DNA of 64,000 nucleotides from an uncultured Chromatiales bacterium (GCA_964581365.1 CAZOOF010000003.1:28042-92041); one strand, 5' to 3'. Positions 33,931 to 51,474 are shown, counted from the first letter of the stretch. Notes: generated by a model not told the origin, from the letters alone. A program made the numbers and translations.

Positions 33931-34023
33931 ATGCTGTCGACAGGACAAGTCCTTATCATGTACGCCGTTTGGTTCCCGCTTGCCTTCGCTCTTGCAGCCT
34001 ACTTGGTCAAGAAGAACTCCTGA
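33931..34023 (+). CDS. 30-aa single-TM microprotein MLSTGQVLIMYAVWFPLAFALAAYLVKKNS (not in ORF track)
   Basis: Translated by hand; G-rich RBS 33919-33925; one hydrophobic helix followed by KK. Confidence 0.6.
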   Translation: MLSTGQVLIMYAVWFPLAFALAAYLVKKNS

Positions 34024-34106
34024 CTGAACTGCCGTCTCGTTCGCGGTCATCCCGATGATTTACGGTGGACCCAGCGCGAGGCCCCGTCGCTCAGGCGACA
34101 GGAAGA

Positions 34107-34135
34107 TTGACGGCCTTTAATCACCTACGTATCAT
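34107..34135 (+). promoter_or_regulatory. Sigma70 promoter for cytochrome c4
   Basis: TTGACG(34107-34112)-17 nt-TATCAT(34130-34135). Confidence 0.65.
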
Positions 34136-34187
34136 GTGCCATTTGGCGCTGGGCGTACATAATAATGGTTATATTGAGAGGGATCCA

Positions 34188-34958
34188 ATGCGACGCTTAA
34201 CGACCCTGGCTTCGATCCTCACCGGTGCACTGCTCATCGCGGCGATGCCTCAGGCACATGCCGCCAAGTCGGCAGTGACTGCCAGCCTTTCGAATGGCGA
34301 AGCCATCTTCACCCAGGGCAAGGGCAATGCCCCCGCCTGCAGTTCCTGTCACGGTGCCGATGCCATGGGTATCGATGCCATGGAAACGCCCCGCCTGGCC
34401 GGGCAGGTCGCCGAGTTCCTGGTCAAGCAGCTCGAGGACTTCGCTACCGATCGCCGCATGGGTCTGGGCGCCGGCGTGGTAATGAACGTGTTCGCCAAGG
34501 AGCTGTCTGCCGAAGACCGGCGTGACGTCGCGGCGTACCTGTCGATGCAGGGTCGTGATCGCGCGACTTCCGCGACCGGTGCTTCCAATCTCGCAGAGCT
34601 GAAAGAGATGGGCATGGCCGTCGGTGAGCCGCATCTGGGACTGCGTCTGGTCAACTACGGCGCGCCGGAGCGGGACATTCCCGCCTGCCGTTCCTGCCAC
34701 GACTTCAACGGTCGCGGCGTGGAGCCGATCTACCCGATGCTCAGCGAGCAGAAGTACGTTTACCTGGTCAACCAGCTGAAGTACTGGCGTGATGGTTCGC
34801 GCAACAATGATCCGCGCGAGCAGATGCAGAAGGTTGCCCGCAACATGACGGACGAGGACATCATCAACGCGGCTGCATATCTGACCGGAGCGTCTCCGTA
34901 TCCGGCGGGCAGCATCCGCATCCCCGAGCGTCATGTGAGCTTCAAGATCGTCAAGTAA
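34188..34958 (+). CDS. Diheme cytochrome c4-type periplasmic protein
   Basis: Signal peptide, CSSCH and CRSCH, PRLAGQ...LVKQLEDF, Met ligand candidates VMNVF and QMQKV. Confidence 0.92.
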   Translation: MRRLTTLASILTGALLIAAMPQAHAAKSAVTASLSNGEAIFTQGKGNAPACSSCHGADAMGIDAMETPRLAGQVAEFLVKQLEDFATDRRMGLGAGVVMNVFAKELSAEDRRDVAAYLSMQGRDRATSATGASNLAELKEMGMAVGEPHLGLRLVNYGAPERDIPACRSCHDFNGRGVEPIYPMLSEQKYVYLVNQLKYWRDGSRNNDPREQMQKVARNMTDEDIINAAAYLTGASPYPAGSIRIPERHVSFKIVK

Positions 34959-34970
34959 TCCGCGCCAACC

Positions 34971-34998
34971 CGCATCCCGGCACCGGAGCCGGGATGCG
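34971..34998. repeat. Perfect 11-bp-stem inverted repeat
   Basis: CGCATCCCGGC-accgga-GCCGGGATGCG. Confidence 0.8.
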
Positions 34999-35014
34999 GA
35001 GCAGATCAGAGACG

Positions 35015-35045
35015 AAAAAAAGGGCGGGAACATCCGCCCTTTTTT
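35015..35045. terminator. Bidirectional intrinsic terminator
   Basis: A7-GGGCGG...CCGCCC-T6. Confidence 0.85.
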
Positions 35046-35100
35046 ATTATGAATCATGCGCTTATTTGCATGTTAGCGCCAAGTGCGAGATAATCCGGGC

Positions 35101-35697
35101 ATGTCTGGACGACAGTCGCTCAAGCAGGGAGAGAAGATTCTTTTCGGCATCGCGATCGTGTTTATCGCCTTTGCCGTGATCGCTTACCTGGCTCTTGAAG
35201 CCTATCGCTTGAGTGTCGGAGGGCAGGTCTTCGAGGCCACCACGCACTTCACTCTGTCCGAAGAAGGGCATCGCGGTTCGGAAATCTTCCGTGCGAACCG
35301 CTGTACCTCATGTCATCGCGCGATGCGCAACGGCACCAATATGGGTCTTTCCCTCGACGGGATCGGTTCCCGCCGTACTCAGCAGTGGATCTACGATTTT
35401 CTCCGCGACCCTGAGGCCACTTACGGTGCGCCGACTTTCGATCATGGCTATCCGCCGAAGGAGGCTGCCTACGTTTCGACGCTTCCGCCGGACGATCTGC
35501 GCCTGATCGCTACCTTCCTGTCCGAATTGCGCTCGGATCAGGGTTCATCGTCCGCGCCGATGCCGCCGTCAGGTGATTCCGCTTTCATCGACAACATGCT
35601 CAGGCTGTTTGCTCCGGGCAGCTGGGACGAGAAGTACGGCGATGTCCGTCAACGCCAGCCGGCGCCGGATGAGGCCCGGGAGCCAGCCGAACAGTAG
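35101..35697 (+). CDS. Membrane-anchored monoheme cytochrome c (NorC/CcoO-like fold)
   Basis: N-terminal TM, CTSCH, LDGIGSRRTQQWIYDFLRDP. Confidence 0.85.
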   Translation: MSGRQSLKQGEKILFGIAIVFIAFAVIAYLALEAYRLSVGGQVFEATTHFTLSEEGHRGSEIFRANRCTSCHRAMRNGTNMGLSLDGIGSRRTQQWIYDFLRDPEATYGAPTFDHGYPPKEAAYVSTLPPDDLRLIATFLSELRSDQGSSSAPMPPSGDSAFIDNMLRLFAPGSWDEKYGDVRQRQPAPDEAREPAEQ

Positions 35698-35795
35698 TTT
35701 TTCCCTTTGTCTTTGACCGAAAGACCGTTCCCGATCGAAGCGTCCCCGCAGCCAGATCTGCCGCGCGCGCTTGAGACCGGATGGCAGGAGAGGAT

Positions 35796-36335
35796 ATGAG
35801 CGACCACAATGCGCCCTGGGCGAAAGATGTCGAGTACACCCGCTATACGGTGATGTTCGTTTATGCCTGCATCATCTACGCCATCATCGGATTCTCATGG
35901 GGAGCGCTGATGGGCGGGATTCAGGAGTTCAGGCACTTCGTCGATCATCGGATGCATGGTCAGTTGATCGTGCGCGCCCACACCCACGTCAATCTGCTGG
36001 GCTGGGTGGAAATGGCGATCTTCGGAGCGGTCTACTATTTCATTCCTCGCCTGGTGCGCAGGCCCATCCATAGCATGACCTTGGTGAAGGTTCACTTCTG
36101 GATGCATAACGTCGGACTGGTGGGCATGGTGGTCCTTTTCACCATCGCCGGCGTGATCGGCGGTATGGCGAGCGTGGAGATGAGCCCGGAAGAGGTCGAG
36201 CCGATGGTCAGTCCGCTGCTGGCCACCATGGGTATCTTCGGAACCCTCGTCCTGTTGGCCAACATCATCTGGGGCTATAATATTTTCCGCACCTGTGCAG
36301 GATGGTCGAAAGGCAAGGAGTGGCAGGAACGATGA
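35796..36335 (+). CDS. Stand-alone 4-TM heme-copper oxidase repeat protein (HCOH-type) no. 1
   Basis: RAHTHVNLLGW...YYFIPRLVRRPIHS...VHFW matches helices IX-XII of the CcoN in this window (VAHAHLALLGF...FHFW). Confidence 0.8.
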   Translation: MSDHNAPWAKDVEYTRYTVMFVYACIIYAIIGFSWGALMGGIQEFRHFVDHRMHGQLIVRAHTHVNLLGWVEMAIFGAVYYFIPRLVRRPIHSMTLVKVHFWMHNVGLVGMVVLFTIAGVIGGMASVEMSPEEVEPMVSPLLATMGIFGTLVLLANIIWGYNIFRTCAGWSKGKEWQER

Positions 36336-36844
36336 ACAGGCACTACCGGACGGCTGTTGCGCTTCTCTTCACCACACTGCTCCTCGCTGGTTGTGAGATG
36401 CAGGGCGGCGTCAACGTCGGTTCAATGGCGCCTTCGATTACCACCAAGACCCTCGCGGACGTTGGCGGGGACTTCAGCCTCATCACGACCTACCGCTATC
36501 CCGACGAGCGCATGTACCAGTACTCCCTGGACGATGCGCTGAAATCCGGCAAGACCATCGTGCTGGAGTTCGCGACCCCGGGGCATTGCACGGTCTGCGA
36601 CAAGCAACTGCAAATGCTCAAGGGGCTGATGGATAAGTACGAATCCGAAGTGCTGTTCCTGCATATGGATCAGTACCGCAATCCGGAAGCTTTCACCGCC
36701 TTCAAGGTCATGGGTGATCCCTGGACCTTCGTCATCGACGGAAACAGCGTAGTGCAGTTCAAGCGTGCCGGCAGGGTCCTGTACGATGAACTCGATGCCA
36801 CGCTGGTGCGGGTGCTCCGGCAGCAGCAGACCGGGATGAGCTAA
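36332..36844 (+). CDS. Thioredoxin-fold lipoprotein
   Basis: Lipobox LAGC, CTVC motif, DPWTFVID cis-Pro region. Confidence 0.75.
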   Translation: MNRHYRTAVALLFTTLLLAGCEMQGGVNVGSMAPSITTKTLADVGGDFSLITTYRYPDERMYQYSLDDALKSGKTIVLEFATPGHCTVCDKQLQMLKGLMDKYESEVLFLHMDQYRNPEAFTAFKVMGDPWTFVIDGNSVVQFKRAGRVLYDELDATLVRVLRQQQTGMS

Positions 36845-37303
36845 GTGGCCGCAGCGGTATCGTATCGCCTGTCCCAGGACAGGAAAGGCATGTGGTGGGA
36901 TCTTCTTCTGTACATCCCGACCGTAGTGTTTCTGTTCGCCACTGGCCTCAAGCTATGGTTCAGCAGCAGCTACCAGAACTGGTCTTATTTGCTGTTTTTC
37001 ATGGCGTTTTTCTTCCTGTTCGCGGGGGCGAGCAGGGTGCTGTCGGGACGGCTCATGCTGTTCGGCTCCTCGCCGGTAGCCATCTCCTGCGACCGCGAAC
37101 AGATCAGCCTCGAACTGCGCAACGGCAACCGTGTCGATCTCGTCAAGGATGTGCGCTTTTTCTCCGACTACGCCGGCAAGTCCTTCGGACTCACCGGCAT
37201 GGACCTGTCGGGACGGCGCCGTCAGTTCGTTTTTCATCGGGGCCAGTTTCCCGATGCCGAGGCCTACCGAAACCTGCTTGATCGCCTTGCGGTATTCAAG
37301 TGA
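36845..37303 (+). CDS. Hypothetical 2-TM protein with soluble C-terminal domain
   Basis: GTG directly follows the upstream stop; two hydrophobic segments. Confidence 0.7.
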   Translation: MAAAVSYRLSQDRKGMWWDLLLYIPTVVFLFATGLKLWFSSSYQNWSYLLFFMAFFFLFAGASRVLSGRLMLFGSSPVAISCDREQISLELRNGNRVDLVKDVRFFSDYAGKSFGLTGMDLSGRRRQFVFHRGQFPDAEAYRNLLDRLAVFK

Positions 37304-37328
37304 GCGGAGTCGGGCGGAAGGGGTGATT

Positions 37329-37523
37329 TCAGCGTGACCTGCGGCGGCGGACGACGTCTGCGGCCATGGCGCCGATGACACCGGCGCCGATGAGACAGGC
37401 TCCAGTGATGACCCAGCGTTCGGTTTGCGGGCTCACGAGTCCCCCGATCAGCATGTGGATCGAGAAGCCCAGGATGAACAGGGACGATACTGCCACGATA
37501 GCGTAGAAAATAATCTCTTTCAT
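37329..37523 (-). CDS. 64-aa 2-TM membrane protein
   Basis: MKEIIFYAIVAV...RRRRSR; two TMs and a basic tail. Confidence 0.7.
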   Translation of the reverse strand: MKEIIFYAIVAVSSLFILGFSIHMLIGGLVSPQTERWVITGACLIGAGVIGAMAADVVRRRRSR

Positions 37524-37883
37524 GAATTCCCGGCGCTTTGCAAACAGCCTTTTGAACAAGGCGAAAACGCTAACACAGACAACGGCGAAAATGCCAATGG
37601 ATCTGCTCTCAAACACTTGCAGACACAGGATGGGGTTGCTATCCTCTGCTGTGCGAAAATATCGGGCGCAGACTGTTATAAATGGCGTCCGCTCGAGCGA
37701 AACTCGGGTATATGGGGCTTGACGGGCCAACAGCCGTATGCAAGCATCCGTTCCCATATAAAAAACAGGGTTGTCCGGGCCGCAGCTCCCCGCTGCGGAC
37801 AGGCCGACCGGCAGCCAGCGCACGACACAACAACAACTATGGCGTGCGGTGATCGGATCTAGAGTCCAGCGGAGGGGTTGTTA

Positions 37884-38159
37884 ATGAATAAACTTGGCTT
37901 CAGCAAAACCTTCTGGGTAGCCCTCATCGGTGGCGGTGTCACTGGCATGGGTAACGGTAGCGTATTCGGCGCCGCGCTCATGTGTGCGCTGGGACGCGGC
38001 TACTTCGAGGACTGGGGTGGCATGGGTATGGATGCCTACAATGCCGTTACGTTCCAGGGATTCGTGAACTGGTGCATGATCATCTTCGGTGTGGCGTTCA
38101 CGATCATCGTCATGATCGCTCTGCGGCGTCACGGCGAGCTGGAAAAGGCAACGAACTGA
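37884..38159 (+). CDS. Gly-rich 2-TM protein, first gene of the oxidase operon
   Basis: RBS GGAGGGG; high-expression-type codons (ttc, atc, ggt, aac). Confidence 0.75.
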   Translation: MNKLGFSKTFWVALIGGGVTGMGNGSVFGAALMCALGRGYFEDWGGMGMDAYNAVTFQGFVNWCMIIFGVAFTIIVMIALRRHGELEKATN

Positions 38160-38212
38160 TCACAGCGTTCGCTTCTGCACCAACGTCATTCAGTCCGGGG
38201 AGGCACCACACA

Positions 38213-38308
38213 ATGTTGGCAACGTTTGCTACGATTGGCTGTATCCTGCTCGCGTTTTCGAGCATGTGGTTTGCTTGGTATCTTCTGATGCCGGGCGATC
38301 ATACCTGA
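38213..38308 (+). CDS. 31-aa single-TM microprotein MLATFATIGCILLAFSSMWFAWYLLMPGDHT
   Basis: RBS GGGGAGG 38197-38203; lies directly upstream of ccoN. Confidence 0.7.
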   Translation: MLATFATIGCILLAFSSMWFAWYLLMPGDHT

Positions 38309-38387
38309 GCATCGGTCCGCCGGCGCCGGCGAGCACGTAAATGCTGTCAGGGAACATGAAAATAGCGCTTTTAGGGGGGTAAGTCCG

Positions 38388-39794
38388 ATGTTCAAGTATC
38401 TGCTGGCCAAAAACGAGGAGATCCCGCGCGGTACAGCGGCGGTCTACTTCGGTGTTTCTTCCATCATCTGGTTCGTGATCGGGACCGGCCTCGGCTCCTT
38501 CAACGCCGCCAAGCTCGCGTTCCCCGACTTCGTCACCGGCTCGGAGCTGTTCTCCTTCGGTCACATGCGCCAGGTCCACGTGATGGCCGTCATCTTCGGC
38601 TGGATCTCGATGGCTTTCGCCATGGCCATGATGTACATCACGCCGGCACTGGGAAATACCAAGCTCTGGTCTGAGAAGCTGGGCGTCTGGAACTGCTTCA
38701 TCTGGAACTTCGGTCTTTCTCTCGGCCTGACCGTGCTGTGGGCCGGAATGAGCTCTGGCCGTGAGTACTCGGACTTCCCGTGGTTCATCGACCTGGTGAT
38801 TCTGTTCGGCATCGTTCTGCCGCTCGGCATCAACGTGTGGATGACCATCATCAAGCGCCGCACCCAGGGTATCTACACCACCAACTGGTTCTTTGCCGCC
38901 GGCTGCTTCATGCTGTTCATCGTGCTTCTGGTCGGTAACCTGCCGGAGTACTTCCAGCTCACGGGTCTGACCGAGGCCTATCTGACCTGGTGGTTCGCGC
39001 ACAACGTGCTTGGACTGTGGATCACCCCGATCGCTGCGGCCATCGCGTACTACACCGTGCCGAAGATCACCGGTAATCCGCTGTACTCGCACCGCATCGG
39101 CCACCTGCACTTCTGGTCCGTGGTGGTGTTCTACTCCACGCCCGCTGCGCATCACCTGATGTCGGCGCCGCTGCCGGAGTGGCTGAAGTCCTTCGCATCG
39201 GTGGAGGGCGTGCTCATTCTGGTGCCGGCCATTGCGTTCGTGTCCAACCTGCTGCTGACCATGACCGGCAAGTGGCGGTACTTCGTCGACAACGTCGAGA
39301 TCAAGTTCACGATTACCGGCGTGCTGATGGCGATCCCGCTGAACATGCAGGGCGGATTCCAGCAGACCCGTGCCATCAACTGGTACATCCATGGTACCGG
39401 CTGGATCGTGGCGCACGCACACCTGGCACTGCTCGGCTTCTCGACCTTCCTCGAGGCTGCCGCCGTGTACTATGGTCTGCAGACGATCCTGCGTCGCAAG
39501 CTCTACTCGCTGGCGCTGGCTAACTTCCACTTCTGGTTCCTGCTGATCGGTTTCACGATCTACTGGATCTCCATGACGATTGCGGGCCTGATCCAGGGTG
39601 CCGGCAAGATCTATGAAGTGCCCTACATCGACGTCGTGATCGCGGAGCATCCGTACATGATCGCCCGTTGGGTTGGCGGCACCATGGTGTTTACCGGAAA
39701 CCTTGTCTGGCTCTACAACATGTGGATGACTGCGCGTGAAGGCACTGTGATCCCCGCGGGCCGTCTGCCGCACGAGATCGCCTACGAGCGCTAG
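38388..39794 (+). CDS. ccoN: C-family (cbb3-type) heme-copper oxidase subunit I, divergent
   Basis: H64, WWFAH205N, Y249-x5-H255H256, H343-x-H345 and REY motifs; 12 TM. Confidence 0.92.
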   Translation: MFKYLLAKNEEIPRGTAAVYFGVSSIIWFVIGTGLGSFNAAKLAFPDFVTGSELFSFGHMRQVHVMAVIFGWISMAFAMAMMYITPALGNTKLWSEKLGVWNCFIWNFGLSLGLTVLWAGMSSGREYSDFPWFIDLVILFGIVLPLGINVWMTIIKRRTQGIYTTNWFFAAGCFMLFIVLLVGNLPEYFQLTGLTEAYLTWWFAHNVLGLWITPIAAAIAYYTVPKITGNPLYSHRIGHLHFWSVVVFYSTPAAHHLMSAPLPEWLKSFASVEGVLILVPAIAFVSNLLLTMTGKWRYFVDNVEIKFTITGVLMAIPLNMQGGFQQTRAINWYIHGTGWIVAHAHLALLGFSTFLEAAAVYYGLQTILRRKLYSLALANFHFWFLLIGFTIYWISMTIAGLIQGAGKIYEVPYIDVVIAEHPYMIARWVGGTMVFTGNLVWLYNMWMTAREGTVIPAGRLPHEIAYER

Positions 39795-39840
39795 GAGACA
39801 AGTCCGCAATTATAAAAGGTTATGAGGGGAGGAATCAGAC

Positions 39841-40791
39841 GTGGCATTCCGTGAATATAAAATAGGTGCGCGACTGTTCGGTGTTGCGCTCGGCGGATCG
39901 ATGATGATCACCATCTACATGCCGAGCCTGGACATCGTTCAGGTGGCGTCGACCGAGATGGGCCTGCGCAAGGGTCTCATGTACGGCCGAGTCGGCGGGT
40001 TCTCGGTCGAAGATCCGTTCCTGCAGGGGGCGGGCAAGCCGGTTACCGTGGTCCTGCGTAAGGATCCGCGGAATGGTGAGCCCATCGATGAGACGTACGC
40101 CTACGTCTACGAAGCGGGCATTCCGTTCACCAGTTCCATCCGTCACCCGCGCATCATGGGTGAAGGCGTGGAGGACCTGAGTCTGCAGCAGGGTCGTATC
40201 GGCGAAGCTGATCAGAATCGGGGCGCTGTGTTCCTGGTGGTCGAAGGCCGCTGGAACGGTGAGCCGACGCACTACATCGAGAACGCGACGGCTACCCGCA
40301 ATTGGACGCCCGAGCTCATCCGCAACGCGGTTAGCGATCAGGACATGCACTATGTCGGCTCCGGCAAGATCATGTTCGTGCGTGAAGGCTGCTGGTGGTG
40401 TCATACGCTCCTCCCGGAGCAGACGCAGGACTGGCAGGCGTTCGGCGCTCCGCCGCGGCTGGGTGACTTCAACAGTGAGTCGCCGACTGCGTTCGGATCC
40501 GACCGCAAGGCGCCCGATCTGCTGCATGTTGCCTCGCGCAACTCCTCACGCGAGTGGATGGTGATGCACTTCTTTAATCCGCGTCTCGTTCAGCCGCACT
40601 CGATCATGCCCCGCTACGACTATCTGTGGGGTGAGGTTGATGCGGATGGCAACCGGATCGATTACAAGAAGTGGCGTGCCGAGTACAGCGAGTACGCCTC
40701 CGGCAAGCGGATCTATCCGCCGGAAGTGCCGGAGCCTGCCGCTGATAGCGACGCCCGCTATCTGATCGACTTCGTGCTGAGCCTCAAATAA
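39841..40791 (+). CDS. ccoO: cbb3-type subunit II with N-terminal periplasmic insertion
   Basis: REGCWWCH, GSDRKAPDL, HFFNPRLVQPHSIMPRY. Confidence 0.88.
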   Translation: MAFREYKIGARLFGVALGGSMMITIYMPSLDIVQVASTEMGLRKGLMYGRVGGFSVEDPFLQGAGKPVTVVLRKDPRNGEPIDETYAYVYEAGIPFTSSIRHPRIMGEGVEDLSLQQGRIGEADQNRGAVFLVVEGRWNGEPTHYIENATATRNWTPELIRNAVSDQDMHYVGSGKIMFVREGCWWCHTLLPEQTQDWQAFGAPPRLGDFNSESPTAFGSDRKAPDLLHVASRNSSREWMVMHFFNPRLVQPHSIMPRYDYLWGEVDADGNRIDYKKWRAEYSEYASGKRIYPPEVPEPAADSDARYLIDFVLSLK

Positions 40792-40807
40792 GAGAGGGGG
40801 GTAAGAC

Positions 40808-41443
40808 ATGGCCTGGAAATTCGATAACCCGCTCTATAGTCTGACCGATGAGGAGCAGAACGAGAAGGCGAAGGAGCTGTGGGAAAAGGAAGCCCTCGGT
40901 GGAATCACCGAGGACAACAACCGCCTGCCGCGTCCGGTGGTCTGGTTGCTTGCGCTTACCATCGTGAGCGCGTTCCTGATGACGTTCCCTCTCTGGGGGC
41001 AGCGTCCGTCGGCGGCAATCTATGAGGACTACGTCGCGCTGATGGATTCGCCTGAGATTCAGGCGATTCAGCAGGAACAGGGCGATGACGCTGCCATGGC
41101 TGCGATGGTCAAGAAGGTGCGCGACCAGGGCTCGACCTACCAGGGGCTGCTGGATCGTCATCCGCTGTCCATGAATGAGCTGCGTCTCATTCGGGATGAC
41201 ATCATCGAGCTGCAGAACACCCGGGTCGACCTGGAAGAGTACTCGGTTGTGGGTGACCAGGTTCTGCTGGCGAACTTTGAAGGCAACTGGAAGCCGGATG
41301 GGACTCGCGAGCGCAAGCAGCCGTGGTGGGACAAGGGGTACACGATCGACCTGTTTTACGTGACGTACTTCTGTCTGGCGGTGTTGATCGCGGTGAAGCG
41401 TCTGCCGAACTATCGTTGGCAGCCGACGCATCACGGTCACTGA
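40808..41443 (+). CDS. Heme-less CcoP-like subunit
   Basis: GGITEDNNRLPRP resembles the CcoP N-terminal motif; 2 TM; no CxxCH. Confidence 0.7.
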   Translation: MAWKFDNPLYSLTDEEQNEKAKELWEKEALGGITEDNNRLPRPVVWLLALTIVSAFLMTFPLWGQRPSAAIYEDYVALMDSPEIQAIQQEQGDDAAMAAMVKKVRDQGSTYQGLLDRHPLSMNELRLIRDDIIELQNTRVDLEEYSVVGDQVLLANFEGNWKPDGTRERKQPWWDKGYTIDLFYVTYFCLAVLIAVKRLPNYRWQPTHHGH

Positions 41444-41461
41444 TAATCTAGGAGAGAAACC

Positions 41462-41593: not shown

Positions 41594-41602
41594 TTGGCGA
41601 TA

Positions 41603-41632
41603 GTGATGCGGGATCTAACGATCCCGCATCAC
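41603..41632. repeat. Perfect 13-bp-stem inverted repeat
   Basis: GTGATGCGGGATC-taac-GATCCCGCATCAC. Confidence 0.85.
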
Positions 41633-41657
41633 ATTGAGCAGCAGGATGTGAAAGAAT

Positions 41658-43298: not shown

Positions 43299-44356
43299 CC
43301 TCGACTCGTGCCTTGCCGCGTATAGATGAGGCCATCCGGCGGCGCCGCAAGCGCTACCTGACGGCGACGATTATCACCTGTATTGCTCTTGCCATGGTCG
43401 GTGGGAGCCTGCACATCGTGCAGCTCGGAGCCAAGCGCATGGAGGAGATGCGGGGCAAGGCGAGCTACGATGTCAGTGAGATGCGCTCGCGGATTCGGGC
43501 TGCTGGCGAGGAACTTCATCGTCACCGCCTCCACGAGGAAAGACAGACATTCGTCGAGTCCTATTCGGTGGAGGAGGCCGAGGCACTGCTCACGCCGGAG
43601 CAGTGGGCCGAGCTGGAGACGATGGTGACGATTCCCGCTGGGCCCTTCATCATCGGTACTAACCGGCCACGCAGCGCCGTGCAGGATCAGCCTGAACACC
43701 GGATAAATCTCCCTGCCTTCCGCATCGACACGTATCCGGTAACGAATGCGCAGTATGCCCGCTTTGTCGCGGCCACCGGGCATCGCCCGCCGCTGAACTG
43801 GGATCAGGGCCGGATTCGCCCGGGTACCGAGCTGCATCCGGTCACCATGGTTTCCTGGTATGACGCTAACGCGTATGCCAGCTGGGCCGGGAAGCGTCTG
43901 CCGACGGAAGCTGAGTGGGAAAAGGCCGCGCGAGGACCGGATGGCAAGCGCTGGCCATGGGGTGATCTCATGGATGCATCGCGCCTCAATACCTATTACA
44001 ACGTGGGCCGGACCACCGAGGTGACGCGTTACGTCTCCGGCGCCAGCGAGTACGGTGTCATGGACCTTGCCGGCAACGTCAGTGAGTGGACGAATGACAA
44101 CTTTCGCCCCTATCCCGGCAGCGATGCGCCGCCGGAGGTGTTCGAGGCGAAGATTGCGGTGGCCACAACGCCGCTGGATGAGGCAATGCAAGTTGTGGAT
44201 TTGGTCCCGGTGGACGGCAGCTACAAGGTGCTGCGCGGGGGTTCGTGGAAGAGCGACCCGTTCTCGACCGCTGCCTACCATCGGAATTATTCATGGCCGC
44301 ACTACGCTTCCGACTTCTTCGGGTTCCGGACGGCGGCAGATATCGTTACGGAATGA
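43295..44356 (+). CDS. Membrane-anchored FGE-sulfatase (NirV/pFGE-like) domain protein
   Basis: YPVTNAQY, RLPTEAEWEKAARG, DLAGNVSEW, RGGSW, GFR. Confidence 0.9.
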   Translation: MTSTRALPRIDEAIRRRRKRYLTATIITCIALAMVGGSLHIVQLGAKRMEEMRGKASYDVSEMRSRIRAAGEELHRHRLHEERQTFVESYSVEEAEALLTPEQWAELETMVTIPAGPFIIGTNRPRSAVQDQPEHRINLPAFRIDTYPVTNAQYARFVAATGHRPPLNWDQGRIRPGTELHPVTMVSWYDANAYASWAGKRLPTEAEWEKAARGPDGKRWPWGDLMDASRLNTYYNVGRTTEVTRYVSGASEYGVMDLAGNVSEWTNDNFRPYPGSDAPPEVFEAKIAVATTPLDEAMQVVDLVPVDGSYKVLRGGSWKSDPFSTAAYHRNYSWPHYASDFFGFRTAADIVTE

Positions 44357-44601
44357 TGAACGCTACGACTCTACGCAAGCTCTGGCTGTACTGTACGCTG
44401 GCCTTGCTGCCGCTGATGCCGGGGACCTCCCTTGCGTTCGACAGTTACAGGTACCTGCATGTCACCATCGACACGATCTGGTACATATTCGTGTTCCTGC
44501 TGCTCATTCTGCTGGTTCCATTCATCCTCATGGCAATCCTTTACTGGTGGACTCTGCGCCAGCGCAAGCTGGACAGCGAGCACTCCGAACCGAAACCCTG
44601 A
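44353..44601 (+). CDS. Small protein with signal peptide and one TM
   Basis: MMNATT...SLA/FDSYRY then a 25-aa hydrophobic helix; ATGA overlap. Confidence 0.65.
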   Translation: MMNATTLRKLWLYCTLALLPLMPGTSLAFDSYRYLHVTIDTIWYIFVFLLLILLVPFILMAILYWWTLRQRKLDSEHSEPKP

Positions 44602-44617
44602 TCAGGGGCAGCACCAC

Positions 44618-44995
44618 GTGCACGCACGCTTTCACACCGCTGTCTGCGCCTTTCTGATGCTGCTGGTGGCAGCGCTGATGCTGGCGCCGGCCGGCGCCCG
44701 GGCGGCGGCGGCCGAACAGGGCACATCTTCCGATACCCAGGTGATTCAGGCATTTTCCGAGGCAATGCGTGAGAGTGCGCAACGCGCCGAAATCACCGAG
44801 CAGCGCAAACACGCCATTCTGTTTCTGATGGGCGTCGTGCTGCTGGTCTGCATGCTTGGCACCGCTGGCCTGGGTGTGGCTATGGCAATCTTTGGCAAGA
44901 AGGTGTTTGTGGCGCACACGATCTTTGCCGGACTCAGCGTTACTCTCGCCCTGGCGCATGCCGTGGTCGCAGTCGTCTGGTTCTGGCCGTTCTGA
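44618..44995 (+). CDS. Small membrane protein with H-x13-H helix
   Basis: GTG start, signal peptide, 2 TM, HTIFAGLSVTLALAH. Confidence 0.7.
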   Translation: MHARFHTAVCAFLMLLVAALMLAPAGARAAAAEQGTSSDTQVIQAFSEAMRESAQRAEITEQRKHAILFLMGVVLLVCMLGTAGLGVAMAIFGKKVFVAHTIFAGLSVTLALAHAVVAVVWFWPF

Positions 44996-45063
44996 CCATC
45001 GCTCTGGCGACCCCGGGATCGCCCGCAAATGACGCGATCATCCACCGATCAGGCGGCTCTTCG

Positions 45064-47688
45064 ATGAGCCGCCGTTTCCTTTATCTGCTTTACGCCTGTT
45101 CGGGAGCGACCAGCCTCGCCTTCGAGGTGTTGTGGGCGCGCATGCTTTCCCTGCAGTTCGGCGTCAGTATCTTCGGTGTCGTGGTGACCATCGCCGCCTT
45201 CATGGCCGGTCTGGGCCTCGGCTCGCTGTTCGGTCTGCGGCTGGGGCGGACCAGCCGCAGACCTCTGGTCGCTTTTGCCTGTCTGGAGGGGGGCATTGCC
45301 ATCTATGCGCTGGCATTGCCGTCGCTGCTGTCGGGTGCCGAATCTTTCCTGTTGCAAGTGGCTGCCGGGGCGCCACTACAGACCTGGTATCTGTTTCAGT
45401 CCGTCGCGCTGCTGGCGCTGATTCTGCTGCCGGCTGTGGCGATGGGCGCGGGCTTCCCCCTGGTGCTCAAGGCGCTCGGCGCGCGCCCGCATGTCCTCGG
45501 CACCCTGTATGGTGTCAACGCATTCGGTGCCGCTCTGGGCGCTTTGCTGCCCCTGTGGCTGCTGCCCCGGTTTGGTTGGATGGCGGCAGTCGAAGCGGTA
45601 GCTGTGCTCGGTCTGCTGGTGGGTACATTCGCTGGCGCGCTCGCCTGGCGCGGCGAGTTTCGTGTGATTCCCGAACCGGGGATGAGGGCGGTCGATCGGC
45701 AGCGGCCAGCTCTGGTCTCACTGGTGGCCTACGCGGTCATTGGCGCCGCTGCCATCATGCTCGAGGTGGCCTGGACCCGCCTGTACGGGATGGTTCTGCT
45801 GCGCACCGAGTATGTGATGGCGGTGATTCTCGCCGTCTATCTCCTCGGTATCGGCGGCGGCAGTCTGCTTGCGCGCTGGCTGCGAGATTCGCGCTGGCTG
45901 GCCGTGTTCCCTCTGGCGGCCGCATTGCTGGCTTTACCCAGCCTGTGGCTCTTGCCGGCGATCTCGACCTGGTCGCAGGGTCAGGATTTCGGTTCTCTAT
46001 GGACGGCGCTGCTGGCTGAAGGGCTGGTGTTGGCGGCAGTGACTTTGCCTGTGACACTGCTGCTTGGCGCCTGGCTGCCGCTGCTCGCCCGGCGCTACGG
46101 CGACGAGGGATCATTCGGCCCGCTGTTCTACGGCGTGAACTCGGTCGGTTCGGCGCTGGGGGGCCTGCTCGCCGGTTTCGTGTTGATTCCATTGCTCGGG
46201 ACACCGGCAACCCTGGTGGCGGCGGCGCTCGCGCTTTTCGTTGCCGGTTGCGTCTGGGCTCCGTCCCCTCGTATCTGGCTGGCCTTCCCCCTGCTGCTCG
46301 TCGCGTTCTGGCCGGTGACGGATTTCCCTCCGGTTGCCAGGCTGGTGCCCGGGATGCACGCCGCCAGTGAGGACCTGTACCGCTATGAGGACGCGATGGC
46401 GATCACGCACGTGATCGAGCAGGCCGATGGGCAGCGTCTGCTGCTGAGCGATCTGCAGCGTATGGATGCCTCCAGCGAGCAGGCTGCGGTCGAACTGCAG
46501 AAGAACCAGGCGCGACTGCCGCTGATGCTGCATCCCCGTGCGGAATCGATCCTGTTTCTGGGGCTGGGGACGGGTATATCGGCTGCCGGCGCGCTCGAGT
46601 TTCCGGAGCTGCAGAAGCGCGCTGCGGTCGAGCTTTCGCTCGGTTCGATTCGCGCCGCGCGGGACTGGTTCGCTCCGGTCAATGAGGGGGTCATCGGACA
46701 GATGACCGTGGTGCGCGATGATGCCCGCCGTTATCTCATGGCGGATGAGGCTCAATGGGATGTCATCGTCGGTGACGTGTTTCATCCCGATCTGGTCGGA
46801 CGCAGCGCGCTGCTGTCCGTTCAGCAGTTCGAGCGTGCACGCTCACGTCTGGCACCGCAGGGCATTTTCGTGCAATGGCTGGCTCTGAACCAGTTCGACC
46901 ACGATTCCCTGCAGGTGGTGCTGCGCAGTTTTTCCCGGGTGTTCCCGGACGGCGTGATGTTCATGGACGGGTTTCGCATCGCGATGGTCGGCGGCCTGGG
47001 GGGAAGGGACCCGGTTCGCTGGATGGATTCGCTCCGCGCCCGCGACGAGGCTCTGGAGGCTGGCGAAGGAATCTGGACCTGGCTCGGGCGCTATTGGGGC
47101 ACGATTCCGCCGGATGACGGCGGACCGGTGCAGGATGAGTGGCGTCCCCATATCGAGTTCCGTCTGCCACAAGCGCGCTATGGCGGTGGCCTGGGACTCG
47201 ATCAGTTGCTCGATTGGTTGCTGCGCATCCGTCCTGAGTCGTCGCGCGCCGCCAGCGAGCTTGGCGTGACGCCCGCCGACCGCGAACGTTTCGAGGCCTG
47301 CTATACAGCCTCGGATCTGGCACTGAAAGCCTGGCTTGCGGGACTGAGGGGCGATGTGCCCCAGTCGCGGCGTCTGCTGCGCTTTGCCTGGGAAGCGAAC
47401 CCGGAGGATCGCTGGACAGGTTTCTCGCTGGCGGACAATATTCTTGCGGAACTGCAGGAATCACCGCGGGGGCTGGAGGACAGGCGTCGCGTACTGGAGG
47501 CCGTGCTTTCCATCAGGCCGGATCATGCCGATACCCTGCGCGCGCTGTGGCATCTCGACGCCGCCCTGGGGCGCCATGAGAGCGCTGCGGCCTGGTTCGA
47601 GCGCCTTGCCGAAGTCAGTCCGCTCGATCGCGAGGTGACGGCAGCGCGGGCTGCTGAGCACGGTGCGGCAACGCCGCCTCCAAAGTGA
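45064..47688 (+). CDS. Fused polytopic membrane domain plus spermidine-synthase-like SAM-binding domain
   Basis: Duplicated TM motifs (EVLWAR/EVAWTR; YGVNAFG/YGVNSVG), LFLGLGTGI, DARRYL, DVIVGDVFHP. Confidence 0.85.
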   Translation: MSRRFLYLLYACSGATSLAFEVLWARMLSLQFGVSIFGVVVTIAAFMAGLGLGSLFGLRLGRTSRRPLVAFACLEGGIAIYALALPSLLSGAESFLLQVAAGAPLQTWYLFQSVALLALILLPAVAMGAGFPLVLKALGARPHVLGTLYGVNAFGAALGALLPLWLLPRFGWMAAVEAVAVLGLLVGTFAGALAWRGEFRVIPEPGMRAVDRQRPALVSLVAYAVIGAAAIMLEVAWTRLYGMVLLRTEYVMAVILAVYLLGIGGGSLLARWLRDSRWLAVFPLAAALLALPSLWLLPAISTWSQGQDFGSLWTALLAEGLVLAAVTLPVTLLLGAWLPLLARRYGDEGSFGPLFYGVNSVGSALGGLLAGFVLIPLLGTPATLVAAALALFVAGCVWAPSPRIWLAFPLLLVAFWPVTDFPPVARLVPGMHAASEDLYRYEDAMAITHVIEQADGQRLLLSDLQRMDASSEQAAVELQKNQARLPLMLHPRAESILFLGLGTGISAAGALEFPELQKRAAVELSLGSIRAARDWFAPVNEGVIGQMTVVRDDARRYLMADEAQWDVIVGDVFHPDLVGRSALLSVQQFERARSRLAPQGIFVQWLALNQFDHDSLQVVLRSFSRVFPDGVMFMDGFRIAMVGGLGGRDPVRWMDSLRARDEALEAGEGIWTWLGRYWGTIPPDDGGPVQDEWRPHIEFRLPQARYGGGLGLDQLLDWLLRIRPESSRAASELGVTPADRERFEACYTASDLALKAWLAGLRGDVPQSRRLLRFAWEANPEDRWTGFSLADNILAELQESPRGLEDRRRVLEAVLSIRPDHADTLRALWHLDAALGRHESAAAWFERLAEVSPLDREVTAARAAEHGAATPPPK

Positions 47689-47720
47689 AAAATAGCCTGC
47701 TACATGCTAGAATTCGCAAT

Positions 47721-49049
47721 ATGTACCACTCCAAGGCACTGTCCAGTATCCCGGTCGTAGTGACCGCGGACGCAAGGGCCGGACGGAGATTGCGCGGAAG
47801 GCGTCGTGCGGTACAGCTCGGCACCCTCCTGCTCGCGATGCTCATTCCGCTGTCCGGTCTATTCCGTATCGATCCGGTGGCTGGCGCCTTCGTGGTGCTC
47901 GACCGTCAGATCTGGTTCGCCGATTTCTACATCGTCGTCGGCCTGTGGATGGCTGTTTCCAGTGTGCTGGTCCTGACCTATTCCTTGGTGGGAACCGCAT
48001 TCTGCGGCTGGTCCTGCCCGCAGAATACGCTGGCGGAGTGGGCCAACCGCATGACGACACGGCTGCTGGGGAAGCGTGCCCAAATCAATCTCGACGGGGA
48101 ACCGATCAAGGTTTCCGCGGGCAAGGACAAGGCGCTCAACTGGGTGATTCTCGGCAGCCTGTTCCTGCTCGCCGCGATGGTGATCGCCATCATTCCGATG
48201 CTGTATTTCTACACGCCCGAGCTGATCTGGCGCTTCATCACTTTCCAGCACGACGCCCGACTGGCTGATTCCCTGCACTGGATCTACATGATCTTCGTGC
48301 TGGTGATGTTCGTGAACATCGCCTTCGTGCGCCATTTCTGGTGCCGCTTCATGTGTGTGTACCGGGTCTGGCAGCATACCTTCAAGACGCGCGAAACGCT
48401 GCATATCGCCCATGACAAGAGTCAGCCCGACGAGTGCGCGCGCTGCAACTTCTGTGAAACCTCGTGTTTCATCGGCATCGATCCGCGTGAAACGGTGGTC
48501 TATGATGCCTGTATCAATTGCGGCGATTGCATTACCGCGTGCAGTTCGATTCGCGGTGCGCGCAAGACCGGCAACAGCCTGCTGCGATTCGAATTCGGGG
48601 AGCGCAGCGAAGAGGCGGACAGACAGCAGGATCGCGGCCGCCACAGTAACGTCGGTTCCGTGATGAAGCGCGCTCCCTGGGCGACGGCGCTGACCGTCTT
48701 TGGTCTGGTTCTGTTCGCCTGGGGCATCATCACCTATGATCCCGTCCATCACACGGTTTACCGTGCCGAGTCGGTGCAGGGCGGGCAGATCAACGATTAT
48801 CGCGTCAACGTCGCGAACAAGCTCTATCGGCCCATGAGTCTGACCGTGAGCTTGGAGGGCCTGCCGGACGGGGCGTATCGACTGGCGTCTGGCGTGGTTG
48901 ATTTTACCGAAGCCGGTCGGCAGGACGTCCGTCTGGAAATCGCCAATTCCCTGTCCCCCGGACTGTATCCGTTCCTGGTGCATGTCGATTCCGAGGACGG
49001 CAAGCGGCGCACGTTCCGCGTCCATCATTTGGTCCAGGAGGGTGCATGA
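47721..49049 (+). CDS. ccoG: CcoG/FixG-like 4Fe-4S membrane protein
   Basis: CGWSCPQ, WCRFMC, CARCNFCETSC, CINCGDCITAC; C-terminal Ig-like domain. Confidence 0.82.
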   Translation: MYHSKALSSIPVVVTADARAGRRLRGRRRAVQLGTLLLAMLIPLSGLFRIDPVAGAFVVLDRQIWFADFYIVVGLWMAVSSVLVLTYSLVGTAFCGWSCPQNTLAEWANRMTTRLLGKRAQINLDGEPIKVSAGKDKALNWVILGSLFLLAAMVIAIIPMLYFYTPELIWRFITFQHDARLADSLHWIYMIFVLVMFVNIAFVRHFWCRFMCVYRVWQHTFKTRETLHIAHDKSQPDECARCNFCETSCFIGIDPRETVVYDACINCGDCITACSSIRGARKTGNSLLRFEFGERSEEADRQQDRGRHSNVGSVMKRAPWATALTVFGLVLFAWGIITYDPVHHTVYRAESVQGGQINDYRVNVANKLYRPMSLTVSLEGLPDGAYRLASGVVDFTEAGRQDVRLEIANSLSPGLYPFLVHVDSEDGKRRTFRVHHLVQEGA

Positions 49050-49507
49050 GTTCGGACAAGTCTACGCAGGAAGCAAAGGGCAAGGATACGCGCCCGCTGG
49101 ATCCGGTAGAGTCAGAGTGGGGTCAAGTCTCGCCGGACCATTACGGTTATGCCTCCGAGGAGGAGCGGCTGGCGAAGCGCGGCCTCGAGGACTGGGAGCT
49201 GGTCGATCGGATCTCCGAGTCACAACGCGGTGTGCCGGTGTGGTTCATTGCGGTGATCATCATGGTGCTGCTGGTTGCCATCGGTCTCAGTTTCCCGTTC
49301 TGGGGAGACCGGCCGGGCTACGAGCGCGAATGGATCAACTGGGGTTTTGGTGCCGCAATCGTCTATCTGCTGATCTTCGGCACTTTCGTCTATTTCATGG
49401 TGCAGCTGTACGGTTCGCGCTGGGCAGGGCGCCTGGACTCCGACCCAGACAAGAGCGACGAAAAGAACGCGACGTCCGAAAGGAAGGATGCCGGCGACGC
49501 TCCATGA
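49046..49507 (+). CDS. 2-TM paralogue of the heme-less CcoP-like subunit
   Basis: ISESQRGVP..TM..LSFPFWGDRP versus ITEDNNRLP..TM..MTFPLWGQRP in 40808-41443. Confidence 0.7.
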   Translation: MSSDKSTQEAKGKDTRPLDPVESEWGQVSPDHYGYASEEERLAKRGLEDWELVDRISESQRGVPVWFIAVIIMVLLVAIGLSFPFWGDRPGYEREWINWGFGAAIVYLLIFGTFVYFMVQLYGSRWAGRLDSDPDKSDEKNATSERKDAGDAP

Positions 49508-49824
49508 TCCGTGCTGTCGTAGTCGCTGCTCTGCTGCTGTTGATGGCAGGATGCTCGGGAGATTCCGCTCCCACATCCTCCGCGCCCGCGGCTTCGTCCG
49601 CAGACAAGTCCTCGCGTAATATAAACCGGACCTATCTGCATTATTGCAGTGGCTGCCACGGTGCGCCGCGTCCGGGTCAACACACAGCGCGGGAATGGCC
49701 CAGCATCGTCGCTCGCATGCAGCAGCGTCGGATCAGCGCCCGGCTCGGTCCGATTCCGCCGCAGGAACTGCGCGAGATTCTCGATTATCTCCAGGAGAAT
49801 TCGGCGGGCGGTCCGCTGCAATGA
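49504..49824 (+). CDS. Small monoheme cytochrome c lipoprotein
   Basis: Lipobox MAGC, Ser-rich linker, CSGCH, WPSIVARM. Confidence 0.85.
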   Translation: MIRAVVVAALLLLMAGCSGDSAPTSSAPAASSADKSSRNINRTYLHYCSGCHGAPRPGQHTAREWPSIVARMQQRRISARLGPIPPQELREILDYLQENSAGGPLQ

Positions 49825-50219
49825 GAGGCGATATGTTCAGAGTTCTGGTTTTCCTCGTCTCCGGCCTGATGCTGCTCACCGCCTGTACGGACGGGAAGGA
49901 GCATGCCCAGCTGGAACCGCAGCACTGGGAAGATATGGTCGTCGCCGTGGAGTTCCGTCCCGTGCCCTTGCGTCCCGGCATGACTGAATTCATGGTGATT
50001 GCGACCCGAGTCGACCGCACCAGGGCGGACGACATGATCGTCGCCCTGCGCAGCGATCCGGGCGCTTCATGGCAGCAGGCGATCCAGGATGGCAAGACGG
50101 GCGTCTATCGCCGGGCAGTACCGCTGCGTGAGGGCGAGCAGATTCTGTATGTCGAGCTCCGGCGCGGTCTGGAGCGGAAGGTGCTCGAGTATCCGGTGCG
50201 GGTAGGCCCAAGTCGCTAG
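49821..50219 (+). CDS. Lipoprotein, possibly FixH/YtkA-like
   Basis: Lipobox LTAC; beta-strand pattern ending G-x-Y...L-x-x-G. Confidence 0.6.
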   Translation: MRGDMFRVLVFLVSGLMLLTACTDGKEHAQLEPQHWEDMVVAVEFRPVPLRPGMTEFMVIATRVDRTRADDMIVALRSDPGASWQQAIQDGKTGVYRRAVPLREGEQILYVELRRGLERKVLEYPVRVGPSR

Positions 50220-50231
50220 ACTTCGGCCGGT

Positions 50232-50756
50232 TCAGGCCTCATTGCCGGAAGGTCGCCGGCGCTTTGCCAGCGTCCTGCTCTGCCGCCAATGGCGAAGGAG
50301 CAGAATCTTTTCTCCCCCCCGCGCTTCGGCGCAGCGCGAACAGGTCAGATGACCGAGCAGGAGCTCGCGAGGCATCTTGCCGGCATCGAGCAGACGACTC
50401 TGGATATCTCGCACTACCGGCCGCAGGCTGCCAAGGTTTCCCTGATGGAGCCAGGCGTAAACCTGATAGGGGCGGGGGAGCCAGCCGACCAGGTGCGAAG
50501 GTGACTGGGTATTCTCCAGCAGGCGAATGAGGGTGCCGCGGAACATTCCGGTACGCACCAAGGCCAGCCCCGGCCATTTCTCCTTCAGTCCGAGGCGATC
50601 GATGTTGGCCTGTTGCCGATGCAACTGCGCGTCATACCCGATCGGCATGTGCAGGAGCATCGGAACCTGTACCCGATGGACACAATGTCCACCGAGATCA
50701 ACGTCCTGCGCATGCCAATCAGGCCAGGTCGACGGGCATCCGCATTCCAGGATCAT
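50232..50756 (-). CDS. Conserved hypothetical protein with CxC and CxxC motifs
   Basis: ECGCP at the N-terminus and TCSRC near the C-terminus; ATGA overlap with the upstream gene. Confidence 0.7.
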   Translation of the reverse strand: MILECGCPSTWPDWHAQDVDLGGHCVHRVQVPMLLHMPIGYDAQLHRQQANIDRLGLKEKWPGLALVRTGMFRGTLIRLLENTQSPSHLVGWLPRPYQVYAWLHQGNLGSLRPVVRDIQSRLLDAGKMPRELLLGHLTCSRCAEARGGEKILLLRHWRQSRTLAKRRRPSGNEA

Positions 50757-51271
50757 GCCTTTCGCGAGTAAACCGTTCGCGCCGTCATGAATACGTTGGC
50801 GAAGAAGATCCAGAAGCCCATACCCATTGCCGTCGAGATGGTGGCGATCAGGGGGCGATAGTAGCGGTGAATCTCGTAGATGGCATCCGTCTCACCCTGC
50901 AGCAGCAGGCGGCCTTCAGTGATGCCGAAAATCATGAGCGTGGAATAAAAACCGGCCACGCCGAGCGCGGTCCACCAGAACGAGTGATCCACCAGCCGCA
51001 TGGACCAGATCGGACGCTTGGAGATGGTGGCAAACAGGTAGTAGGTGACCGCCATGCACAAGAGTACTACCCCGCCCACCACATTGATATGGGCATGGGC
51101 GAGTGGGTCGATCATGTGTCCGGGACCACCGTACGGGCTGCCGATCGAATCCAGCCACGCCCGCACTGGCGGGATTACCTGGATGACGCCATGAACCGTG
51201 CCGATGAAGAAGAATGTGGCCGAACCTACTAGAAATTTCAGTAGCTTACGCAGATCCTGTTCTGCTGACAT
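50753..51271 (-). CDS. Stand-alone 4-TM heme-copper oxidase repeat protein (HCOH-type) no. 2
   Basis: LAHAHINVVGG...YYLFATISKRPIWS...HSFWW. Confidence 0.8.
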   Translation of the reverse strand: MSAEQDLRKLLKFLVGSATFFFIGTVHGVIQVIPPVRAWLDSIGSPYGGPGHMIDPLAHAHINVVGGVVLLCMAVTYYLFATISKRPIWSMRLVDHSFWWTALGVAGFYSTLMIFGITEGRLLLQGETDAIYEIHRYYRPLIATISTAMGMGFWIFFANVFMTARTVYSRKA

Positions 51272-51318
51272 ATCCTGCCCCGATGGCGCTGGCACAAGGC
51301 GCGCGGGTTGTCTGGCTG

Positions 51319-51351
51319 AAAAAAAACCCGGCGTGCGGCCGGGCTTTTATT
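51319..51351 (-). terminator. Intrinsic terminator
   Basis: Minus strand GCCCGGC-loop-GCCGGG followed by T8. Confidence 0.8.
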
Positions 51352-51366
51352 GATACGGCGCCGCAA

Positions 51367-51474
51367 TTACTTCTTGCGGTTGATGCTCTCCAAGGCGCGC
51401 TCGCTGATGTAACCGCCCAAGAACACGCTGAGACCAAAGAAGATAATGATCGGCACCAGAATTTCCGGCCACAT
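51367..51474 (-). CDS. 35-aa single-TM microprotein MWPEILVPIIIFFGLSVFLGGYISERALESINRKK
   Basis: RBS GGGGAGGG 8 nt upstream, own terminator; not in ORF track. Confidence 0.75.
   Translation of the reverse strand: MWPEILVPIIIFFGLSVFLGGYISERALESINRKK

Follow-up and report, generated by a model that had tools for sequence, protein, structure and literature searches.

A respiratory gene block of an uncultured Chromatiales bacterium encodes four micro-proteins of 30 to 43 amino acids (aa), here called m1 to m4, which represent four unnamed families linked to a cbb3-type oxidase of the 'distal' kind; two of them, m2 and m3, are core to this uncharacterised and physiologically important enzyme. The block occupies 33.9-51.5 kb of a 64,000-nucleotide stretch (GCA_964581365.1, CAZOOF010000003.1:28042-92041), referred to as the window throughout, which belongs to a 2.17-Mb draft genome with a G+C content of ~60%. 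Within it, m2 sits between the gene for a 91-aa membrane protein (p91) and ccoN, m3 closes the same operon behind the gene for a haem-less CcoP-like protein (P'), m1 opens an operon with a di-haem cytochrome c4 gene, and m4 is a stand-alone gene close to one of two truncated ccoN copies, truncated CcoN-2 (Table 1). On balance, we favour the view that m1 to m4 are translated single-pass peptides and dedicated parts of the distal cbb3 module, in which m2 and m3 would be single-helix subunits and m1 and m4 would belong to side modules.

A preliminary description of the locus had listed four open reading frames (ORFs) of 30, 31, 43 and 35 aa (m1, m2, m3 and m4, respectively), each with a strong ribosome-binding site, one transmembrane (TM) helix and a charged tail, and two of them with a terminator of their own. 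Our translations were exactly those listed, a Shine-Dalgarno (SD)-like run was present 5-10 nt upstream of all four ATGs (GGGGGG for m1, GGGGAGG for m2, AGGAGA for m3 and GGGGAGGG for m4), and every peptide contained a single strongly hydrophobic 19-mer with a mean Kyte-Doolittle value of 2.0-2.5. The SD-like motif recurred in 38 of 39 m1 loci, 69 of 79 m2 loci and 70 of 75 m3 loci, compared with 12.5% of random 15-mers. In the family alignments the N-terminal tails were free of Lys and Arg and the C-terminal tails bore a mean of 1.7-3.6 such residues, and the charged tail is accordingly found across the families, although it is weak in the source genome's own m2 (PGDHT). Given the positive-inside rule, this distribution of Lys and Arg predicts that all four peptides cross the membrane once, with the N-terminus outside and the C-terminus inside. 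The two terminators belong to m3 and m4, each of which is followed by a hairpin and a T-run. Such an element lies within 130 nt past the m3 stop codon in 65 of 74 loci and the m4 terminator is kept in 18 of 19 orthologous loci, with stem sequences that differ between loci in both cases; a downstream hairpin-plus-T was also found for m2 in 43 of 79 loci, mostly within the ccoN coding sequence, and was disregarded. At the level of single residues, m1 has an invariant Tyr11 and a conserved C-terminal LKKNS, while the core of m2, LAFSSM..WY..P, is nearly invariant and keeps SSM, W, Y and P in the helix. In m3, M1, D5, P8, P22 and D30 are invariant, within the kept motifs MI[DE]xDNxP and PxxYSFFxD. 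For the intramembrane residues of m2 and m3, conservation is close to that of the catalytic subunit.

Conservation was followed in two sets of loci. The same-family set consisted of CcoN orthologues 78-99% identical in about 20 genomes and yielded 19 loci, which together with the window make 20 sequences. Using tblastn and hidden Markov model searches, we found m2 and m3 in all 20 sequences, m4 in 19 (the remaining contig ends early) and m1 in every sequence that reaches its position, and in each copy the ATG and the SD site were in corresponding positions. The wider set, with one genome per species, was drawn from 327 CcoN relatives, of which the best 80, all at least 84% identical, were taken; these came from metagenome-assembled genomes (MAGs) labelled Gammaproteobacteria/Chromatiales, Ca. 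Tenderia, Gallionella, Sideroxydans, Ferrovum, Nitrosomonadales, Burkholderiaceae and Steroidobacteraceae. Here, m2 was present in 79 of 80 loci, the exception being cut inside ccoN, m3 in 75, the contigs of the other five ending too early, and m1 in 39. No orthologous locus long enough to include the respective ORF had lost the ATG or the open frame. The comparison of relatives by tBLASTn with nonsynonymous-to-synonymous rate ratios (dN/dS), suggested as a check in the preliminary description, showed the ORFs to be conserved with dN/dS below 1: the ratio was 0.01-0.5 in unsaturated pairs, and in most pairs synonymous sites were saturated (proportion of differing synonymous sites, pS, about 0.7-0.81, versus a nonsynonymous proportion, pN, of 0.28-0.44). 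Nucleotide diversity increased in the order of codon positions 2 < 1 < 3. A systematic scan for conserved ORFs of 18-120 codons across 33400-52000 recovered m1 to m4 together with already-called small genes and their shadow frames, and no further micro-ORF. We conclude that m1 to m4 are confirmed as real genes under purifying selection. The four ORFs are very short, and two of them fall below typical gene-caller thresholds, which would also be expected of chance ORFs or of conserved untranslated non-coding sequence; set against the retention of ATG, SD and stop in about 60-100 loci each and against synonymous saturation, the codon-position pattern and dN/dS below 1, this explanation is effectively refuted.

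The peptides occur where the oxidase occurs. In the source genome the distal-type module is the sole C-type oxidase that we found: no canonical ccoN was detected in the assembly (94.6% complete), in which the ccoN matches are the distal-type gene and the two truncated copies. We sampled the class with a single genome from each genus, 151 in all; 12 of them had this type of CcoN, in 11 cases the close form (identity of at least 74%) and in one a 59%-identical copy. Among these 12 genomes m1 was found in 11, namely all those with the close form, m2 in 10, m3 in 10 and m4 in 9, and the peptide copies share contigs with CcoN at syntenic distances. The gaps that were examined correspond to broken contigs or to the 59%-identical CcoN, a check that did not extend to the absence of m4 from two genomes. 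The 139 genomes of this sample without this CcoN contained no m1 to m4 except for four weak partial matches with E values of at least 2e-5. A phylum sample of 251 genomes included 38 with this CcoN, 37 of them in two families of another class, and m3 was present in 38 of these 38; in addition, two fragmented genomes of the sample carry m3 without CcoN. In the two families of the second class, CcoN is 76-81% identical, and m2 was recovered from 12 of 12 genomes, lying 50-70 nt 5' of ccoN in the 11 strongest cases. The module occurs in iron-oxidising and electroautotrophic proteobacteria.

Transcription was assessed with contigs of near-identical sequence assembled from compost and digester metatranscriptomes. 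RNA contigs from three runs begin at 33876/33877 and continue through m1 into the c4 gene, and a single 3.8-kb RNA contig (37696-41470) spans p91, m2, ccoN, ccoO and P'. In three other runs, overlapping RNA contigs extend over m3 and stop at 41631-41645, which is past the first hairpin behind m3 and before the conserved hairpin with its T7 run; the latter element (41660-41693) looks like the real terminator. On the minus strand, m4 lies within RNA contigs that extend into truncated CcoN-2, and in two runs the contigs stop at the same position, 51483. This position falls within the conserved GGGGAGGG SD sequence, 9 nt before the m4 ATG, and could be a genuine 5' end or a point at which strain variation interrupted the assembly. 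A sigma-70 scan identified no site that accounts for the RNA 5' ends. At 40796, in the spacer between ccoO and P', the RNA contigs of three runs are one base shorter than the window, probably owing to a strain difference.

Gene neighbourhoods were equally constant for particular pairs. The p91 gene is followed by m2 in 98 of 98 loci, P' is followed directly by m3 in 94 of 94 and m1 directly by the di-haem c4 gene in 58 of 58, and m2 is followed by ccoN in 91 of 98 loci. The clusters themselves are rearranged in several ways. In seven loci, of which L072 is the type, the p91-m2 pair has been relocated jointly behind the spermidine-synthase-like gene; in Sideroxydans-type loci the entire m1-c4 operon is inverted; and in the four Burkholderiales-type loci examined (two Burkholderiaceae and two labelled 'beta proteobacterium') the c4 operon is fused behind m3, with an m1-like ORF immediately before c4 in two of the four. 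In one group of loci (L072, 8157-11407) ccoN is preceded by a cytochrome c gene and a gene for a multi-TM protein instead of p91-m2, and these two look like parts of an alternative complex III. The m4 gene and its terminator lie upstream of truncated CcoN-2 in 9 of 18 loci and otherwise diverge from it or are found elsewhere, and m4 sequence and terminator are kept in those loci too. The partner pairs survive inversions and relocations, as would be expected of products that act in trans. This bears on a different explanation, namely that the ORFs are cis-acting leader peptides or upstream ORFs, working by attenuation (m4 with its terminator) or by translational coupling (m1 and m2). It would fit the positions of m1, m2 and m4, each 5' of a gene or operon related to haem-copper oxidases, the location of m1 towards the 5' end of the c4 mRNA and the m4 terminator that precedes truncated CcoN-2 in the window. 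We regard it as very improbable, given that only about half of the loci have m4 and its terminator upstream of truncated CcoN-2, that m2 relocates with p91 away from ccoN, that m3 closes its operon and that conservation of the whole peptide, TM character included, across two classes would be unexpected for a leader. For m4 the attenuator model was rejected, as the position of the gene with respect to truncated CcoN-2 varies. The suggestion in the preliminary description that the peptides are regulators is disfavoured by the same observations, the retention of m4 away from truncated CcoN-2 and the movement of m2 and p91 off ccoN in seven loci.

The distribution of the module also raises the question of whether the peptides might be small membrane proteins unrelated to the oxidase, of a generic membrane or stress type or toxin-like, that hitch-hike in a mobile cluster. 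CcoN is at least 84% identical between Tenderiales-like Gammaproteobacteria and MAGs of Gallionella, Sideroxydans, Ferrovum and Burkholderiaceae, and 76-81% identical in another class, which suggests that the module has passed horizontally, as a whole, between iron oxidisers. The module thus appears to move between gamma- and beta-type lineages, and co-occurrence could therefore partly reflect co-transfer. Nevertheless, we consider hitch-hiking very improbable: the neighbour pairs stayed fixed through many cluster rearrangements, the sampled genomes that lack the oxidase also lack m1 to m4, apart from the weak partial matches and the two fragmented genomes with m3 alone, and no defence or toxin family was matched in Pfam.

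As judged by profile comparison, m1 to m4 are four separate, unnamed families. No Pfam or NCBIfam match was obtained in single-sequence or per-member scans; at E<=10 the window's four peptides gave only chance matches to unrelated Pfam families, and searches of the PDB with the profiles of all four families returned no related chain at E<=10, the unrelated chains that appeared having E>0.4. Mutual paralogy of the four, as might be suspected from the 'PIIIxF' core that m3 and m4 have in common, was rejected with hhalign values below 3%. We also rejected membership in CcoQ/FixQ (PF05545) at the level of sequence profiles, as 0 of 73 m2 and 0 of 74 m3 sequences matched at E<=1, and the window's m1 and m4 gave no FixQ match at E<=10. 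As a positive control, seven CcoQ sequences from canonical ccoNOQP operons of related genomes were used, of which five matched at 6e-5 to 8e-11 and a sixth at 0.07. With hhalign, comparison to a 54-sequence CcoQ profile gave 25% for m2 and 34% for m3, and across two CcoQ alignments the values were 25-36% for m2, 16-34% for m3, 3% for m1 and 1.5% for m4; none of these is significant, and those of m2 and m3 exceed the background of <3% among the micro-families. Like CcoQ/FixQ, m2 and m3 are predicted to be single-pass, are encoded in an oxidase operon and are equipped with a basic, cytoplasmic tail after the helix, and the m2 motif W[FL]xWY[LI]LxP[RK]xK resembles YxWV[FL]xPKN[KR] of CcoQ. In contrast, m2 and m3 are shorter and lack the C-terminal region of CcoQ, and whereas the CcoQ gene lies between ccoO and ccoP, m2 precedes ccoN and m3 follows P', so that the gene order here, p91-m2-ccoN-ccoO-P'-m3, departs from the ccoO-Q-ccoP arrangement. 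A distant CcoQ ancestry may nevertheless apply to m2 or m3.

Other small proteins of oxidases offer analogies in size or in genetic setting. CydX-type peptides of 30-40 aa with one helix are encoded in the cytochrome bd oxidase operon and are needed for enzyme stability; they resemble the present peptides in size, helix number and operon setting, although the enzyme superfamily is unrelated. The gene for a further such peptide, ccoM, lies outside the cco operon, and m2 and m3 lie within theirs. CcoM is a 36-aa helix that was found as an extra component in the crystal structure of P. stutzeri Cbb3-1 and was proposed to act in assembly or stabilisation (PMC4742706). It resembles the present peptides in size, in its single helix and in its proposed role, and it too was long overlooked by annotation (PMC4742706), but none of the m1 to m4 profiles finds the CcoM chain in the solved cbb3 structures (PDB). 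CcoS/FixS (PF03597) and CcoH are likewise small membrane proteins genetically tied to cbb3 oxidases, and the helices of CcoH and cytochrome cy sit on the R. capsulatus cbb3 enzyme, that of CcoH beside TM helix 9 of CcoN (PMC7876108). CcoH is much longer than m1 to m4, however, and the cluster has a separate, weakly FixS-like gene; the FixS profile picked up 3 of 74 m3 sequences at E>=0.11 and no m2, and none passed the threshold.

Strict co-occurrence, invariant neighbours and co-transcription with ccoN/ccoO together support the conclusion that m1 to m4 are dedicated to the oxidase system. Of the proposal in the preliminary description that they are accessory subunits, the part that stands on these three lines is that they are oxidase-dedicated membrane-protein genes; that they are subunits we infer, as we do their translation, their physical association with the enzyme and a stabilising role. 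Two traits of known accessory subunits were found here, co-transcription with the structural genes (m2 and m3) and co-occurrence with the enzyme. In the arrangement that we propose, m2, with p91, and m3 would be single-helix subunits on the CcoN/CcoO/P' oxidase and would contribute intramembrane helix packing and stabilisation, the job of CcoQ, CcoM or CcoH in canonical cbb3 enzymes. For its part, m1 would serve the module encoded by the operon of di-haem c4, cytochrome c and the 4-TM truncated CcoN-1, and m4 may belong to the part of the cluster that contains truncated CcoN-2.

Several observations weigh against this arrangement. The RNA contigs attest the presence of RNA only, not translation or abundance, and m2 stands apart from ccoN in 7 of 98 loci. 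In the 12 genomes of the second class m4 is absent and m1 weak or absent, and m1 and m4 therefore cannot be core oxidase subunits; from the occurrence across both classes it follows that m2 and m3 are core and m1 and m4 lineage-restricted. Finally, linkage in the genome is expected of assembly factors no less than of retained subunits. The peptides might then be transient assembly or maturation factors, similar to CcoS/FixS or CcoH, that aid cofactor or subunit insertion and are not retained, for which linkage and co-transcription would look the same. The cluster does hold genes of the maturation type (a CcoG-like gene, the weakly FixS-like gene for a 93-aa protein and a thioredoxin-like lipoprotein), and CcoM itself has been proposed for assembly or stabilisation (PMC4742706). 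We nonetheless judge a transient role to be rather unlikely, since m2 and m3 lie within the structural operon and not among the maturation genes, their intramembrane conservation is near that of the catalytic subunit, which is more typical of permanent helix packing, and no FixS match exceeds the threshold. A bolder version of the single-helix subunit proposal, which we put forward tentatively, is that m2, m3, p91 and P' are all indispensable subunits of a distinct 'alternative complex IV', where they replace CcoQ and CcoP, that one of m2 and m3 is a drastically shortened descendant of CcoQ, and that m1 and m4 are subunits of the accessory modules with c4 and truncated CcoN. If this were true, iron-, sulfur- and electrode-oxidising proteobacteria would possess a modular haem-copper-oxidase supercomplex, and its composition could not be deduced from the annotations now available.

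Table 1. Genes and signals of the respiratory block, in window coordinates. The gene map is based on Pfam and NCBIfam scans and on the public gene call for contigs with identical sequence.
Feature	Position	Strand	Description
5' leader of m1-c4 transcript	33876-33930	+	SD GGGGGG at about 33919-33925
m1	33931-34023	+	30-aa predicted single-pass peptide MLSTGQVLIMYAVWFPLAFALAAYLVKKNS; first ORF of the c4/cytochrome c/truncated CcoN-1/thioredoxin-like operon
Di-haem cytochrome c4	34188-34958	+	
Membrane cytochrome c	35101-35697	+	
Truncated CcoN-1	35796-36335	+	4-TM fragment of haem-copper oxidase subunit I
Thioredoxin-like protein	36332-36844	+	lipoprotein
137-aa membrane protein	ends at 37303		
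64-aa gene	37329-37523	-	convergent
p91	37884-38159	+	91-aa membrane protein; constant upstream partner of m2; no Pfam family match
m2	38213-38308	+	31-aa predicted single-pass peptide MLATFATIGCILLAFSSMWFAWYLLMPGDHT; 79 nt 5' of ccoN
CcoN-like	38388-39794	+	Pfam COX1 8.8e-77; NCBIfam ccoN score below equivalog cut-off
CcoO-like	39841-40791	+	Pfam FixO 1.8e-16; NCBIfam ccoO score below equivalog cut-off
P'	40808-41443	+	haem-less CcoP-like; Pfam FixP_N 1.8e-4, below its cut-off
m3	41462-41593	+	43-aa predicted single-pass peptide MIDVDNPPLIVLIPIIIVFVAPFIYSFFVDKYDKATPPLRDDE; last gene of the p91-m2-ccoN-ccoO-P' operon
Hairpins downstream of m3	41605-41630; 41660-41687 then T7 (to 41693)	+	terminator of the ccoN operon
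Further cluster genes	41730-50219		weak FixS-like gene, cytochrome c, FGE-fold protein, 82-aa single-TM protein, membrane-fused spermidine-synthase-like protein, CcoG-like, others
Weak FixS/CcoS-like gene	42072-42353	+	93 aa; FixS E=0.0018, below cut-off
82-aa single-TM gene	44353-44601	+	signal-peptide-like N-terminus, then one helix (FDSYRYLHVTIDTIWYIFVFLLLILLVPFILMAILYWW)
Cys-rich protein	50232-50660	-	
Truncated CcoN-2	50753-51271	-	
m4 intrinsic terminator	51319-51348	-	stem CCCGGC/GCCGGG then T8
m4	51367-51474	-	35-aa predicted single-pass peptide MWPEILVPIIIFFGLSVFLGGYISERALESINRKK; stand-alone gene, here upstream of truncated CcoN-2

The preliminary description had called the four ORFs unannotated and supposed that pipelines miss them. 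For the source genome this is correct for m1 and m2, which have not been gene-called, but not for m3 and m4, which are called on contigs of the same sequence; the exact sequences of m3 and m4 are present in public protein collections, without an informative name, and those of m1 and m2 are not. Orthologues of all four have been called elsewhere as 'hypothetical protein', those of m1 and m2 in NCBI or JGI records. The m3 family comprises at least 400 clusters, none with a name other than 'hypothetical' or 'uncharacterized membrane protein', and the m2 profile retrieved 24 representatives among 1.8 billion.

Part of the region has been seen before. A preprint on Tenderiales described a cbb3-1/cbb3-2 region of Ca. 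Tenderia electrophaga with about 26-30 conserved genes (bioRxiv 10.1101/2022.05.06.490989), which is the same conserved region as the cluster in the window. Its Fig. 2B draws a gene before the di-haem cytochrome, the RAST-only peg.91 directly ahead of CcoN and, behind the genes next to CcoO, further genes without a name, and the text mentions small single-TM ('STMD') proteins and suggests an 'alternative complex IV' (bioRxiv 10.1101/2022.05.06.490989). The preprint contains no analysis of the peptides with respect to selection, partners, topology, transcription or occurrence beyond Tenderiales and a few relatives (bioRxiv 10.1101/2022.05.06.490989). The enzyme corresponds to the 'distal' cbb3 subtree that has been discussed for iron oxidisers. 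According to published transcriptomes, a non-canonical complex IV ("IV-2") is among the most highly expressed gene sets of Ca. Tenderia electrophaga, whose genome carries this region, and in Sideroxydans lithotrophicus ES-1 the distal cbb3 is more highly expressed than the proximal one.

To our knowledge, the distal cbb3 enzyme has never been purified. For its expression, purification, modelling or deletion it matters that at least m2 and m3 travel with it in two proteobacterial classes, and the four families, for which Pfam and NCBIfam have no model, could be adopted as markers of the distal type. Oxidases with small subunits of a single helix are well known and part of the region is already in the preprint, so that for a specialist the surprise will be moderate.

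Two further small genes of the cluster have features in common with the proteins discussed above. In the 93-aa protein encoded at 42072-42353, the match to FixS/CcoS is confined to the N-terminus and is followed by a long charged tail, and the gene is kept across loci. The ATG of the 82-aa single-TM gene overlaps the stop codon of the gene for the FGE-fold protein; this gene has been gene-called, is kept in distant loci and is probably the 'STMD' gene drawn in the Tenderiales preprint.

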